From Escherichia coli (GTDB lineage Bacteria > Pseudomonadota > Gammaproteobacteria > Enterobacterales > Enterobacteriaceae), in the NCBI RefSeq assembly GCF_048403405.1, contig NZ_CP183129.1: a DNA stretch of 64,000 nucleotides, one strand, 5' to 3'. The notes under the pieces are model-generated. The model worked only from the letters and a program-made list of their open reading frames with translations, did no database searches and was not told the DNA's origin. The translations under genes were made by a program, and so were the position numbers. This document shows positions 37,865-64,000 of the stretch, piece by piece (position 1 is the first letter of the stretch; each line of letters starts with the position of its first letter).

Positions 37865-37981
37865 TTAAAAACGATATCCTGCTGAGAACATAAACACCCA
37901 CGGATCAAGGCGTACGCTATCGTGTTGCTGTGCACCGCCCAGCTTATAATTGGCGGTGGTATCGATATCCATGTACCACAC
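37865..37981 (-). pseudogene. ompW: 3' remnant of ompW (last 38 codons) left by prophage integration
   Basis: minus-strand translation VWYMDIDTTANYKLGGAQQHDSVRLDPWVFMFSAGYRF-stop matches OmpW C-terminus as I recall it; in-frame stop immediately upstream at 37991-37993 and unrelated AT-rich DNA beyond. Confidence 0.8.
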
Positions 37982-38293
37982 TGGTAGGTTTCAAAAAACA
38001 CAATAACCAATTGTATTTGAAGCAAAAGACAAGACTTTGAGATGTTTTTTTGTACCTTTTTTTTATGTTTTTAACTGTCTGATTTTATTGAAATCTTTTT
38101 TAGTTTTGCAGAAGGAATTTTTTACTTGATTGTAACTTTTTCGTTTTTTTGGGGCTAATTGACGCGCAATGCTGGGCGGGGAGCGCACAGCCAAAAAAAC
38201 CGAAATTGACCGCTAATTACTGCCAATCATCATCGCTCTGATTGAGCGTAAATCATTCAGGTTATTCAGTTCTTCCTTCTGCTCTCGCTGACG

Positions 38294-38575
38294 TCAATAA
38301 ATCCCATCATTGCGATCAACCTCATCCTTAACCATTGATGCGAGCAGTTCTTCCAGTTTCTGCGCTGACAGCTTTACCTGGTGATCTTCAGCATCTTCCC
38401 GGGCTATTGTGGTTCGCGCAGTGGCTGATTTTGCTGACATCACCACAGGGGGCAGACGGACCATTGAACCATGGCCTCCGGAACAAATAAGGGCAAAAAT
38501 AACAACCACTATCGAAAGCTCACAAACTAACCGCAGCACGTTCCTGCATACGACGTATCTGCGGCATAATCCCAA
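38294..38575 (-). CDS. hypothetical 93-aa protein at prophage end (doubtful)
   Basis: ORF only; start lies inside the 214-bp repeat/hairpin; no recognisable family. Confidence 0.25.
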   Translation of the reverse strand: MGLCRRYVVCRNVLRLVCELSIVVVIFALICSGGHGSMVRLPPVVMSAKSATARTTIAREDAEDHQVKLSAQKLEELLASMVKDEVDRNDGIY

Positions 38576-38744
38576 TGATTACTCCCTGACAGGATTTGCA
38601 GGCCACTCAATATCAGGTGCAGTTGATGTATCAACACGATTCAACAATACCCGATATTTATTCCATGCCTCCAGCAACGATCTTTCTTCCTCCGTTGCGA
38701 TTTCCAGATCTACAGCATCCTGCAGTGGCGCAATATACTCACTG
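38531..38744. repeat. direct repeat copy 1 (about 214 bp, roughly 90 percent identical to 39581-39794)
   Basis: alignment by eye: ccgcagcacgttc...ggcataatcccaatgattactccctgacagg...ccagatct(a/g)cagcatcctg. Confidence 0.8.
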
Positions 38745-38848
38745 AATTCCTGGATGTAGAACTGTGTGGTGACGGTCTTCCAGCCATTCGGCTCCTGCTG
38801 TATCGAAGCATACCAGGCTATTTCAATATCGCTATGCTGCGGCAGCAT
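38579..38848 (-). CDS. tail fibre assembly protein fragment/variant (Tfa-like C-terminus)
   Basis: 89-aa ORF; C-terminal 50 aa ([51 protein letters not shown]) closely match the Tfa C-terminus at 39628..40212, N-terminus unrelated. Confidence 0.6.
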
Positions 38849-38904
38849 TTAACCCCTTGTAATTCATCGCCATAATTGATTTAATTCACAAATAAAACTA
38901 TAAC

Positions 38905-39573
38905 ATGGTGAAATCAATGAAAAAAAACACAGATGATGGGGCTAAAATTTACACACCACTTACCCTAAAGCTTTATGACTGGTGGGTTTTGGGAGTATCA
39001 AATCGGCTTGCATGGGGATGTCCTACAAAGGAACACCTTCTTCCACACTTTCTGGAACATGTAGGTAACAACCATCTGGATATTGGTGTTGGAACTGGGT
39101 TTTACCTTACTCACGTACCTGAGAGTAGTCTGATATCTTTAATGGATTTGAACGAAGCTAGCCTGAACGCGGCATCTACAAGGGCTGGGGAATCAAAAAT
39201 TAAACATAAAATTAGCCATGATGTTTTTGAACCTTATCCCGCGGCGTTACATGGTCAATTTGATTCCATTTCCATGTTTTACCTTCTTCACTGCCTGCCT
39301 GGAAATATATCTACAAAAAGCTGTGTAATACGCAATGCGGCGCAGGCCTTAACTGACGATGGAACTCTATACGGAGCCACAATTCTTGGCGATGGAGTTG
39401 TGCACAATAGCTTCGGTCAAAAACTGATGCGCATTTACAATCAGAAAGGCATCTTTTCAAACACAAAAGATTCCGAAGAAGGCTTAACACATATACTCTC
39501 AGAGCATTTCGAGAATGTTAAAACCAAGGTTCAAGGTACTGTAGTAATGTTTTCCGCTTCAGGGAAAAAATAG
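38905..39573 (+). CDS. class I SAM-dependent methyltransferase (prophage moron)
   Basis: 222-aa ORF with motif I LDIGVGTGFY; AT-rich; opposite strand to tail genes; alternative start ATG 38917 preceded by GGTGA. Confidence 0.75.
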   Translation: MVKSMKKNTDDGAKIYTPLTLKLYDWWVLGVSNRLAWGCPTKEHLLPHFLEHVGNNHLDIGVGTGFYLTHVPESSLISLMDLNEASLNAASTRAGESKIKHKISHDVFEPYPAALHGQFDSISMFYLLHCLPGNISTKSCVIRNAAQALTDDGTLYGATILGDGVVHNSFGQKLMRIYNQKGIFSNTKDSEEGLTHILSEHFENVKTKVQGTVVMFSASGKK

Positions 39574-39580
39574 CATCCAA

Positions 39581-60942: not shown

Positions 60943-62854
60943 TCACTCCTCCGGACAGCTTCGCTGCCAGTTCTTTAAGGGTTGGCCGGGTCGTCTCTTC
61001 TTCCCGGGATTTTGCCAGTACAGCCAGATCAAGCTGCCAGCGTTGCACGGACACACGTAATGCCGCATAGGCATACACCAGGCAGTCCAGCGCTTCGTTA
61101 CGCCGCTTTTTGTTATCCCACAGCAGACGCATCTTTCCTTTTTCCCACTTCTCCACAAGCTCTTCCGCGACCAGTTGCTGCGCCTCTGTCTGCGAAAAAA
61201 TCTCCGGATCATCAGGAAAACGGATGGCATACGACGTGGCTTCATCCGCAGGAGTGGGATCGGCTTTCATACGGGCATAGAGAATTTCTTTTGCGGTGTC
61301 CGTCCCCACTTCACACAGATACACGCCCCGCTGATTGCGGGTTTTCGGCATGGTGATCACCGGCTTGCCATAGACAGATGCGCCTTTTACCGGCAGCACC
61401 CGGAAAACACCGTGTTTTTTTGACCTCTGATAGACAATTTCACCATCGATCCCCCCGGTGTCCCAGCAGACACGGGAAATGGTCATTTCGGTGCCATCTG
61501 CATGGCAGTATTTTTTGTTGATCGCCGCATCCACACGTAACAGCGTCTCTTCCTCATCGGGACGGCCCATAATGATGATTTTATCCACCAGAAAAGCTTC
61601 CTCTCCCGGTGCCCATCCCCAGACATACATCTCAAAACGGTTTCGCTGCGAGTCAATGCCCGCCGTCAGATAAACCACCCGGGCTGGCACCGCCGCCGTG
61701 TAATGCACGACCTTATCCATCAGTACCTGGTGATCGAGTTTTTCGCCCACGGCCTCTTCCCAGGTCTCGCCCAGCGTGGTGTTCACAAAGGTTTTCAGGC
61801 CGTTGGGATCTTTCAGTGCATCCAGCCAGTCATAGACTATCTGTACCCAGGTGGTGAACGGACTGTACGCCGTCCAGATATGGAACGTGATGGAGCGCGG
61901 CGGCGGAATTTCATTATCCGCGGCGCTGAAAAACGTCAGACCGTCACGGGTCCACATCCCCGTGTTTTCACAGATCCACCGCCCGTTGCTCTGGTCAAGC
62001 TCAGACTGATGGATCACGCAGCCATGATGTTCACAGAGGTAGAAAACGCTTTCGGGGCTGTCCTTCTCCCATTTAAGGCCAAAAGGCGTGGATTCATCGC
62101 CAAATTTCAGATACTGCTCCTCCCCACAGTGTGGGCAGGGCACATAAAAACGCATGAAATGCGCCGACTCGTTGGCCGCTTTTTCGATCTGGCAGGTGCC
62201 TTTGATTTTAGGCGTCGAGCCGCGAATGGATTTGGGCCATACAGAGCCCTCAATACGTTTATCCCCAAGCAGGGTTGGCGACCCCTCTTTTTCGACATCC
62301 GGTTCGAACGAGGAAAGTTCGTCATAGCAGACCACGTCCACGGATTTTTCACGGTAGTTTTTAGCGGCAGCCCCGCCCAGGCACCAGAAGCCCACGCCCG
62401 ATGAAAAACGTTTCAGCGTGAGGGTATTATCACGATGTTTACGCCCAAACCACGGTGCAAGATCGAGTAAAACCGGCACATCCCTGATCGTGGGTTCCAC
62501 ATGAGATTTCATAAAATCTTCAGCAGCAGAATCCGTGGGCTGGAAAAGAAGGCTGTTGCGTGATTTATGCTCAATAAAATAAGCCTCCACTCCCAGCAAC
62601 ATCTTTGTATAACCAACACGGGCAGATTTAATCAGATTAACAGTGCGGATCCGGTCATTCCCCATGCTGTTCATGATGGCAACCTGAAACGGCAGTGTTT
62701 CCCACCGCCCCGGGGTGTAAGATGACTCTTTCGGAAGGTAATAATGTCGATCTGCCCACTGAACTGTCGTCAGAGGGACAGGAATTTTTAGCGCAAGGAG
62801 GCCGGTTGCTATCGCTCCTGCAGAATTAGCCGCCCTCAGTTCGTCTGAAATCAT
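60926..62854 (-). CDS. A: terminase large subunit A
   Basis: ORF 60926..62896; lambda gpA-like (..[14 protein letters not shown]..); start probably the internal Met at about 62854, overlapping Nu1. Confidence 0.9.
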
Positions 62855-63374
62855 CAATCCACCTGCGCACATTCTCACCGGCTTCAGAAGCCACATCGGA
62901 TGCTTTCGCGATTTCAGTTTTCACAGCATCAAGATGTACGGGTGATATATCAGGGTATTTACGCTGCAGTGTCTGAGGGACACGGACAAGGATCCCTGAT
63001 ATATTCTGTGCCACTCGCTGAAAGATGTAGGTAAATAACTCCGTCTCGAGGACAAGGCCTTCCTCACGAGCATTTTTCAGCTCCTGTGCATCGGCCTGTG
63101 CCTTCGTCAGTCGGTAACGTTCGTAATCAATGGTGCAGGGCTGAAGGTCTGATTCGCTGGCAGCCCTCAAATCCTCGATCTCTTTACGGAGTTTTTCGTT
63201 TTCAATATCAGCTTCCCTCTGCGCATACCACTGAATGGCAGCAGTTGTATCAAAAACTGATTCAGTCCCTTTCCCTCCACCAGAAACTAGTGGTAACCCC
63301 TGACTCTGCCAGGCGGTGATGGTCCTGACATCAACGCCAAAAATATCGGCCAGTTTTTTCTTATTGACGTTCAT
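62826..63374 (-). CDS. nu1: terminase small subunit Nu1
   Basis: 182-aa [31 protein letters not shown] (HTH), lambda Nu1-like. Confidence 0.9.
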
Positions 63375-63543
63375 ACACTCCCCCGGGAACCAGAAAGGAT
63401 CTGAAAATGGCGTTTTCTAACAAAAACAGCCTTTGTCAGATCCTTTTATATTTTTAAAATTCTATTGATAATCAATCAGTTAAAAAGAAGAAGAACGGAT
63501 CTGATTTTTCCCTAAAAATTTTCATAAATAGCGAAAACCCGCG

Positions 63544-63555
63544 AGGTCGCCGCCC
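63544..63555 (-). other. cosN cohesive-end site (12-nt GGGCGGCGACCT); cosB presumed between here and Nu1
   Basis: minus-strand sequence TTACGGGGCGGCGACCTCGCGGGTTTTCGCTATTTATG matches lambda cos as I recall it. Confidence 0.8.
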
Positions 63556-63761
63556 CGTAACCGGTCGGATCGCCGGAAAGGACCCACGAAATGATAATTA
63601 TTATCATCTATATAAGGTTTATCACAACATGTGTGTACGCCATCAAACCACGAGAAATAATCAATTATGACGCAGGTATCGTATTAATTGATCTGCGTCA
63701 AATTAACGTAAAAGCAACTTCAGATAATACAAATCAGCAACACTGAATATGGGGAAACATT

Positions 63762-63947
63762 ATGTCATCAAAGAACAGAACCCGCAGAACAACAACCCGC
63801 AACATCCGATTTCCAAACCAGATGATTGAACAAATTAACATCGCTCTTGATCTGAAAGGTTCAGGAAACTTTTCAGCGTGGGTTATTGAAGCCTGCAGAA
63901 GAAGGCTGTCAACAGAGAGTTCGGGTATGAATTACATAATTAAGTAA
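63762..63947 (+). CDS. small prophage protein, YlcI-like (uncertain)
   Basis: 61-aa ORF near cos; family assignment from memory only. Confidence 0.4.
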   Translation: MSSKNRTRRTTTRNIRFPNQMIEQINIALDLKGSGNFSAWVIEACRRRLSTESSGMNYIIK

Positions 63948-64000
63948 CATGGTGTTCACAGAACACGCAGTTACCGGACACATCAGTTTTCCATTCGCTC

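Follow-up and report, generated by a model that had tools for sequence, protein, structure and literature searches.

The window, by which we mean the whole 64-kb stretch of Escherichia coli DNA that was analysed, ends inside a prophage. Our reading, to which we assign a probability of roughly 0.9, is that positions 37863-64000 are the half of an approximately 51-kb lambda-like prophage that carries attR and the tail genes, that the prophage belongs to the PPompW family, and that the integration most likely rebuilt ompW. What the DNA shows directly is the position of the junction, an unoccupied site in a strain of the same lineage, late genes in lambda order, the cos sequence and two frameshifts. 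The integrase end and the rebuilt ompW we infer from a relative, because both lie beyond the end of the window. It is important to emphasize that both the prophage family and its ompW site have been described before and are very frequent, and that the present element adds no new biology to them.

The following features define the junction and the adjoining phage arm.
37299-37805, + strand: yciE, host flanking gene (open reading frame; annotated yciE in strains 100% or 99.9% identical here)
37863-37983, no strand: attR copy of the 121-bp imperfect att repeat from the ompW 3' end (three-way attB/attR/attL alignment)
37865-37981, - strand: non-functional ompW remnant at attR, comprising the last 38 codons and stop codon of the original gene, now displaced (translation and alignment to K-12 OmpW)
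37953-37978, no strand: 26-bp block of exact identity, GCGGTGGTATCGATATCCATGTACCA, common to attB, attR and attL (alignment)
37984-38200, no strand: AT-rich phage att arm, 32.7% G+C (base composition)
38103-38112, + strand: GTTTTGCAGA, candidate integrase arm-type binding site (only exact copy within the 64-kb window)

The ompW locus is split by the insertion: identity to both K-12 and strain 4621 (NZ_CP103479.1) breaks within the gene. The insertion lies beside the trp operon, as the first-pass annotation had recognised. Positions 35001-37983 are 100.000% identical to strain 4621, and the match stops exactly at 37983. Strain 4621 is of the same lineage, with which the first 25 kb of the window likewise share 100.0% identity, and it has an empty site with an uninterrupted 639-bp ompW. 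The first-pass annotation had put the junction at about 37982, which is correct to within 2 bases, and its statement that only the last 38 codons of ompW remain, adjoining yciE, agrees with the translation and with the K-12 OmpW alignment. Read on the minus strand, 37865-37981 encodes VWYMDIDTTANYKLGGAQQHDSVRLDPWVFMFSAGYRF followed by a stop codon, which matches the end of K-12 OmpW. This remnant, convergent with yciE, is identical to the native ompW end of strain 4621 and is without a start codon or the promoter-bearing 5' part. A stop codon in phage DNA, three codons upstream, closes its frame, and in relatives RefSeq records the same segment as a pseudogene ('OmpW family, incomplete, missing N-terminus'). 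We consider it most likely to be the displaced original gene end, and not evidence for an ompW knock-out.

Phage sequence starts at 37984 and runs to the window end at 64000. Its first part is AT-rich, as the first-pass annotation had noted. The core repeat, which had been proposed to match 37975-37995, lies elsewhere: the repeat is wholly to the left of 37983, and strand exchange presumably took place within the exact 26-bp core. One base beyond this core, at 37979, the window has C where strain MSB1_7C, discussed below, has G. The attL copy seen in relatives is 136 bp long, owing to a 15-bp insertion, and combines the common core with a phage-derived 3' end. Three tandem copies of GTTTTGCAGA lie between int and ompW at the MSB1_7C attL (L003 4540-4573). 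With one further copy in the other arm, this arrangement recalls lambda's P'1-3 and P1/P2, and by this analogy the repeats are probably integrase arm-type sites. A strict IHF consensus has no match in the att arm at 37984-38200. The 64-kb window contains neither an integrase nor a second att copy, and so the int end and the other att site do lie outside it, as had been thought; in MSB1_7C they are found about 25 kb past the point that matches the window end.

Over 26 kb, three differences separate the phage part of the window from the MSB1_7C prophage: a single SNP, a 10-bp deletion and a 1-bp deletion. The MSB1_7C element is about 50.9 kb long and ends with an exonuclease gene, xis and int, followed by an intact ompW of 654 bp (217 aa; annotated ompW by RefSeq) whose last 43 codons are phage-derived. 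In an OmpW alignment, the rebuilt protein differs only between the last two beta-strands, where NYKLGGAQQHDS becomes KYKSDGRKLAKGSYSDN, a gain of 5 residues. Under the standard topology of an 8-stranded barrel, this segment is presumed to be extracellular loop 4. The last 51 nt of the gene carry only 2 changes, both synonymous, and the stop codon is followed by a terminator-like hairpin and U-run (-17 kcal/mol, z = -4.75). Full-length ompW is also present at the int-proximal junction in LC-1302-2020, strain 143, E24377A and uk_P46212. Given this near-identical prophage in another strain, we predict that ompW of the window strain was most likely rebuilt and not knocked out.

The first-pass annotation took OmpW to be inactivated unless the phage supplies a replacement 3' end at the far junction. 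The proviso holds in MSB1_7C, and the inactivation is most likely wrong, since the far junction of relatives contains an intact, phage-completed ompW. It could still be argued that the far 5' part is truncated, frameshifted or deleted in this particular strain, with loss of the colicin S4 receptor. The window itself shows the 3' remnant only, a published account (PMC3603311) appears to record ompW as disrupted by phage integration, and the two frameshifts in the window's prophage make further decay at the unseen end conceivable. A deletion or rearrangement at that end is likewise conceivable: internal deletions mediated by insertion sequences do arise in this element, as in LC-1302-2020, where IS3 has taken the place of the late genes in a related prophage. 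No complete genome pairs the window's host flank with the window's prophage. However, ompW is annotated as intact in every inspected genome in which int adjoins it and in all rows sampled from the genome-wide searches, and the phage-borne end stays in frame and keeps both the last beta-strand and the C-terminal YRF. We therefore regard a true loss of ompW here as very improbable.

The rebuilding of ompW would proceed as follows. The phage would insert by site-specific recombination in the 3' part of E. coli ompW, using an att site in which int is directly followed by a diverged phage version of the final ~40 ompW codons and then by the terminator-like hairpin. Recombination would occur inside a stretch of ~26-31 bp over which phage and host do not differ and which encodes the second-to-last beta-strand of OmpW. 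At attL, the host promoter and the first 174 ompW codons would thereby be joined to the phage-borne end, giving an intact OmpW of 217 aa, while the original host end would be stranded at attR without promoter or start codon, as the fragment seen in the window. OmpW is predicted to change nowhere but between its last two beta-strands.

PPompW prophages and their 121-bp att have been described previously (Nakamura et al. 2021, PMC8112680), with the integrase defined by >90% identity over >90% of the length to that of O145:H28 strain 112648. In our comparison, the MSB1_7C int and att segment aligns along its full length (100%) with 11 PPompW or Stx2a-in-PPompW records at 97.2% identity, and a 121-bp att repeat from the ompW 3' end marks the prophage boundary at 37863-37983. 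With at least 80% query coverage, int adjoins ompW in 1,714 of 5,426 complete E. coli genomes (~32%), ompW being annotated as intact in each row sampled, and the exact attR of the window is common to 597 genomes.

The PPompW of STEC O145:H28 (P08 of strain 112648) shares with the window the gene used for integration, the imperfect ompW-derived att repeat and lambda-like morphogenesis genes. It differs in several respects. The 21-bp secondary attB for Stx2a phages, which lies within the O145:H28 prophage, occurs neither in the window nor in the MSB1_7C copy. The phage-borne ompW end of the MSB1_7C-type prophage is a less common variant with 15 extra bases. Moreover, the host is not an O145 STEC; among the matches listed, the closest carriers are human isolates, two of them from rectal swabs. 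The same target is used by CP-933O/OI-57 of O157:H7 EDL933, described at yciD (ompW) (PMC9144400). O157:H7 genomes share the attR junction and ~130-150 bp of phage DNA with the window, after which the phage arm diverges, and they have the other type of phage-borne end, a 172-nt form at ~83% identity. The O157 elements carry virulence cargo, whereas none is seen in the window. The principle resembles that of phage 21 and e14, which integrate within the 3' part of icd, also a protein-coding gene; there, a diverged duplicate of the gene end, supplied by the phage, keeps the open reading frame (PMC3603311). The target gene and integrase are different, however, and the ompW replacement alters the protein, adding 5 residues to a presumed surface loop.

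About a third of complete E. coli genomes have a phage-supplied OmpW end with a different inter-strand segment. It is possible, although we think it rather unlikely, that PPompW-type lysogeny rewrites a presumed OmpW surface loop through the att site, with no dedicated conversion gene. If the loop matters, a receptor modification that protects against superinfection or bacteriocins would be encoded in the att site itself. A similarly doubtful extension is that the replacement is an adaptive lysogenic conversion, and not a neutral by-product, altering recognition by colicin S4, by OmpW-dependent phages or by antibodies. OmpW serves as receptor for colicin S4 in E. coli and for phage in Serratia (PMC10132071). 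Native and phage-borne ends differ mostly between the last two strands, with the flanking strands nearly identical. At least two phage-borne loop types exist, the +5-residue type in ~157 records and KYKSGV(T/N)TVKDS in ~1,400 genomes; OmpW of cattle strain 143 has the loop KYKSGVTTVKDS. However, the loop is polymorphic in native ompW too, and strain AVS0973 has a native +5 allele, so the phage copies may be captured alleles drifting under weak constraint. In the literature that we searched, we found no study of the effect of the loop swap on sensitivity to colicin S4, OmpW-dependent phages or antibodies. For annotation, an ompW fragment beside a prophage mimics a receptor knock-out, a reading that is most likely wrong, and carriage of the element described here is no ground for calling a strain OmpW-negative.

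The phage DNA carries the following late genes, from the tail to cos, and one small gene beyond.
47874-48455, - strand: I, tail assembly protein (RefSeq, PHROGs, lambda tblastn)
48452-49185, - strand: K, tail tip assembly (C40 peptidase), frameshifted by a 10-bp deletion at 48648 (comparison with MSB1_7C)
49196-49894, - strand: L (homology)
49894-50223, - strand: M (homology)
50220-52793, - strand: H, tape measure (homology)
52774-56131, - strand: T, G, V, U, Z, FII and FI, tail shaft and head-tail joining in lambda order (homology)
56183-57211, - strand: E, major capsid protein (homology)
57269-57616, - strand: D, decoration protein (homology)
57653-59157, - strand: C/Nu3, head protease and scaffold (S49 peptidase), frameshifted by a 1-bp deletion at 58880 (comparison with MSB1_7C)
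59147-60739, - strand: B, portal (homology)
60736-60942, - strand: W (homology)
60926-62854, - strand: A, large terminase (homology)
62826-63374, - strand: Nu1, small terminase (homology)
63544-63555, - strand: cos cohesive end GGGCGGCGACCT, 12 bases, identical to lambda (single exact match)
63762-63947, + strand: small YlcI/YnfO-family gene beyond cos (phrog_949; RefSeq)

In tblastn searches with 24 lambda late proteins, 23 have colinear matches from nu1 to tfa, all on the minus strand and with 43-94% amino acid identity, which bears out the lambda-order late region of the first-pass annotation. The exception is FI, which lambda FI does not match but which belongs to the PHROG family for FI. 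The complete order is nu1-A-W-B-C-D-E-FI-FII-Z-U-V-G-T-H-M-L-K-I-J-lom-stf-tfa, and PHROGs confirm the terminase, portal, capsid, tape measure, J, Lom, tail fibre and tail fibre assembly proteins. The cos sequence GGGCGGCGACCT lies 170 bases upstream of nu1, and the prophage carries on past the window end. As in integrated lambda, the late genes are next to attR. Unlike lambda, which integrates between gal and bio, the element has a 343-bp spacer between I and J, and its accessory region next to att is short, unlike the lambda b region.

Not all essential morphogenesis genes are intact, as K and C are frameshifted: the lambda homologue of each matches in two different frames, and the truncated K product has 201 aa. 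An exact-protein look-up of the latter gave no match. Because of these two lesions, the window's copy may be defective and may form no infectious particles. We see about even odds that the element is a decaying, non-inducible remnant, fixed in place and unable either to excise or to form particles; heavily deleted versions in related strains, such as LC-1302-2020, are consistent with this. Beyond the two lesions, however, a single SNP is all that separates the 26 kb from copies in other lineages; the remaining late genes have open reading frames, and cos is undamaged. The 1-bp deletion in C is in a homopolymer, a run of C, and could be a sequencing error, and int, xis and the att sites suffice for excision. 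The question of decay is compatible with our assignment to the PPompW family, as it concerns present activity and not identity; the K and C frameshifts bear on viability, not on lambda-like family membership.

Between the att arm and gene I are the accessory and tail fibre genes.
38213-38482, - strand: tail-fibre-related gene remnant (DUF4376), pseudogene (RefSeq annotation of identical sequence)
38579-38848, - strand: remnant of a second tail fibre assembly gene copy, C-terminal part (PHROG matches)
38905-39573, + strand: class I SAM-dependent methyltransferase, 222 aa, accessory (RefSeq name; phrog_2132, function unknown, E 4e-157)
39628-40212, - strand: tfa, tail fibre assembly (94% identical to lambda Tfa; phrog_105)
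40212-43238, - strand: stf, side tail fibre, 1008 aa (PHROGs and lambda tblastn)
43390-43989, - strand: lom, outer-membrane protein, intact in the window copy (phrog_108, full length)
44057-47530, - strand: J, central tail fibre and host specificity, 1157 aa (69% identical to lambda J; PHROGs)

An open reading frame at 38294-38575, which overlaps the tail-fibre-related remnant, has a weak PHROG tail fibre match. The second tfa copy matches residues 132-194 of lambda Tfa, and 38544-38759 has 89% nucleotide identity to 39594-39809. The methyltransferase gene runs opposite to the late genes. In MSB1_7C, lom has an internal stop at the SNP that corresponds to window position 43758.

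The insertion into ompW is real and correctly placed, and the structural reading of it is right. The host side of the junction contains the following features.

29464-29557, trp leader (Rfam match)
29579-36109, + strand, trpEDCBA, followed by yciG, a frameshifted yciF and yciE
37299-37805, yciE, after the frameshifted yciF
37865-37981, - strand, ompW remnant, which translates to VWYMDIDTTANYKLGGAQQHDSVRLDPWVFMFSAGYRF*, i.e., the last 38 codons and the stop codon of K-12 OmpW

The first-pass annotation had described this ompW fragment and placed the junction near 37982. Both the coordinates and the description agree with the translation and with the position, 37983, at which identity to uninterrupted loci ends. 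The frame of the remnant is closed by a stop codon three codons further upstream, within foreign DNA. In a megablast search of 37300-38700 against 5,426 complete E. coli genomes, the match to K-12-like genomes ends at query base 684, which is window position 37983, while a junction-spanning match (one match covering at least 80% of the query) was present in 597 of these genomes. An empty site in a related strain had been suggested as a check, and one was found in silico in strain 4621 (NZ_CP103479.1), whose locus reads trpA, yciG, frameshifted yciF, yciE, an intact and uninterrupted 639-bp ompW, and yciC. By sequence, this strain is an empty site within the host lineage: positions 35001-37983 have 100.000% identity with it, ending exactly at 37983. 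Because identity to the empty site stops there, the host/phage boundary lies between 37983 and 37984. The 217 bases beyond the junction have a G+C content of 32.7%. A second ompW-like att copy was not found within the 64-kb window, nor was a strict IHF consensus found in the att arm.

The claim that the inserted DNA is a lambda-like prophage in lambda gene order was borne out by tblastn, PHROGs and the cos sequence. By tblastn, 23 of the 24 lambda late proteins were matched in colinear order, all on the - strand and with 43-94% identity; the gene order is nu1, A, W, B, C, D, E, FII, Z, U, V, G, T, H, M, L, K, I, J, lom, stf, tfa. FI was recognized via PHROGs, which also confirmed other key late genes, and the lambda cohesive-end sequence GGGCGGCGACCT is located at 63544-63555, upstream of nu1. 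A short accessory region, from the junction to tfa, holds remnants of two tail-fibre genes and a class I SAM methyltransferase gene (+ strand). As in integrated lambda, the tail-gene end adjoins attR, so the window contains attR plus about half of the prophage. The element is a member of a published and very common family.

It had also been proposed that OmpW is lost unless the phage brings a substitute 3' end at the far junction. Loss is most likely wrong, since the phage supplies a replacement 3' end, as is seen in a near-identical prophage, that of MSB1_7C, and in many genomes. We conducted a three-way alignment of attB (the empty site, from K-12), attR (from the window) and attL (the int-side junction, from MSB1_7C). 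At the attL of MSB1_7C, the ompW 3' end is of phage origin, and int is followed there by an intact gene annotated as ompW (654 bp, 217 aa) and then by yciC. An exact 26-bp block, GCGGTGGTATCGATATCCATGTACCA (window 37953-37978), is common to all three sites, and the imperfect repeat, taken in full, is the counterpart of the 121-bp att known from PPompW, a lambda-like prophage family inserted in ompW whose spread has also been described (Nakamura et al. 2021, PMC8112680). The sole difference between the chimeric and the native protein is located between the last two beta-strands, where NYKLGGAQQHDS is replaced by KYKSDGRKLAKGSYSDN, making this segment 5 residues longer. The final strand and terminal YRF are retained, with only two synonymous changes in the last 51 nt.

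In MSB1_7C, a hairpin lies 3' of the phage-borne stop codon and separates ompW from int, which converges on it; the 12-bp stem leads into a U-run (-17 kcal/mol, z = -4.75 upon folding of the segment). A consensus terminator scan missed this hairpin, but folding shows it clearly. Three tandem copies of GTTTTGCAGA lie between the hairpin and the stop codon, and the sole exact copy in the 64-kb window is at 38103-38112, 120 bases inside the phage arm. Their arrangement recalls P'1-3 and P1/P2 of lambda, and by this analogy the copies are probably integrase arm sites. The far junction of the window's prophage would be expected to read exonuclease, xis, int, the hairpin, a 654-bp ompW ending in ...AKYKSDGRKLAKGSYSDNVRLDPWVFMFSAGYRF, and then yciC. 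Based on the near-identical prophage and on the many genomes in which this integrase adjoins an intact ompW, the window's strain most likely retains OmpW.

Such arrangements are frequent. A query comprising the int 3' end and ompW was covered by at least 80% in 1,714 of the 5,426 genomes, and in every row sampled from these the gene is annotated as ompW and not as a pseudogene. The phage-borne end with 15 extra bases, as in MSB1_7C, occurs in ~157 records at an identity of at least 95%. Most of the remaining ~1,400 genomes with the query covered by at least 80% carry a second phage-borne type (~83% identity), whose loop, where translated, reads KYKSGV(T/N)TVKDS; its carriers include O157:H7, O104:H4, O145, O111 and ST131 strains. 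In the literature, OI-57/CP-933O of EDL933 is reported to lie at yciD (ompW) (PMC9144400), and ompW is among the most occupied integration hotspots (Bobay et al. 2013, PMC3603311). The latter study appears to call ompW disrupted, unlike icd. Our comparisons indicate that ompW resembles icd, an integration target whose ORF is kept, in that its 3' end is duplicated and its ORF preserved, with the difference that the protein sequence is altered.

In the standard 8-stranded barrel topology, both termini are periplasmic. Given this topology and sequence identity to E. coli OmpW of solved structure (2F1T, 2MHL), the variable segment would be extracellular loop 4; an AlphaFold2 model from a 6-sequence OmpW alignment had a mean pLDDT of 32 and was unusable for assigning the loop. 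OmpW is the colicin S4 receptor (PMC10132071), but it is unlikely that the phage-driven loop swap functionally alters it. The loop is polymorphic among native alleles too. AVS0973 (NZ_CP124471.1; positions 605-1258 of the extracted locus) has a divergent native ompW of 217 aa with the loop KYKSNGAVLPAGRYSDN; because of this allele, the last loop can be considered naturally variable, with +5-residue forms also present where there is no prophage. In AVS0973, ompW adjoins trpA, and yciG, yciF and yciE are absent.

The closest copies of the phage (ECO_1_S, 118UI, MSB1_7C and others) have 99.9% identity over 25 kb. Over 26 kb, the window's phage DNA has only three differences from that of MSB1_7C.

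43758, SNP in lom
48648, 10-bp deletion in K
58880, 1-bp deletion in a run of C inside C/Nu3

In the adjoining host yciF region, ~4% of positions differ between the two, so that one phage is found in different chromosomal backgrounds, which implies recent horizontal spread between lineages. The MSB1_7C element is ~50.9 kb long, and beyond the window's content it includes lysis genes, three tRNA genes, Q, replication genes, a cI-like region, dicB, exonuclease, xis and int. The window's host flank and prophage occur together in no complete genome (best match 98.7%).

The window's copy may be defective. The two deletions cut K to 201 aa and split C/Nu3 into two frames; the prophage of MSB1_7C, otherwise identical, shows no further indels relative to this copy. 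The lesion in C/Nu3, being 1 bp in a homopolymer, could stem from a sequencing error; should both lesions be real, tails would not be built and heads would not be processed. Excision could still be possible with an intact int, xis and attL. For the frameshifted K protein, a search for exact matches found none. The lom gene (43390-43989) is intact in the window, while that of MSB1_7C, with its one SNP, has an annotated internal stop; thus, the inactivating changes differ between two near-identical copies. Decay has gone further in the related strain LC-1302-2020 (3176-4900 of its locus), whose copy of the same prophage is a deletion derivative. There, an IS3-family element takes the place of all late genes, starting with stf and reaching the lysis region, but int, the rebuilt ompW and both junctions, attR and attL, are kept.

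Within the window's phage DNA, the 3' part of tfa is duplicated in the same orientation (38544-38759 and 39594-39809, 89% identity), and the two copies flank the oppositely oriented methyltransferase gene (38905-39573), whose PHROG family has an unknown function. The arrangement looks like what is left of an exchange of tail-fibre modules, together with the insertion of an accessory gene. A match to Rfam IS009 (225 bits, 39671-39869, - strand) is wholly within tfa coding sequence; it is probably due to the family having been built on tail-fibre DNA of prophages, and not to a separate RNA gene. The gap between I and J is 343 bp (47531-47873), versus 60 bp in lambda, and its only ORF (47511-47852) is without a PHROG match. 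PPompW is described as having a 21-bp secondary attB for Stx2a phages; neither the window nor the loci of MSB1_7C and LC-1302-2020 contain this site.

The host is an E. coli chromosome, as the first 25 kb of the window are 100.0% identical to several E. coli genomes, including strain 4621. Shigella was considered because yciF is a pseudogene, but it was ruled out by these 25 kb, and is also countered by strain 4621, an E. coli with an identical frameshifted yciF. The pseudogene (36755-37253) has two 1-bp deletions, at 36782 and 37110. Since yciF is likewise annotated as 'frameshifted' in strain 4621, where the site is empty, the lesion belongs to the lineage and has no connection with the prophage. 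Ordinary chromosomal features in the host part include Rfam matches to the enterobacterial sRNAs STnc180 (14613-14815, - strand) and STnc490 (20473-20596, - strand). A host segment at 23001-25000 has a low G+C content (39-41%, versus ~50% around it).
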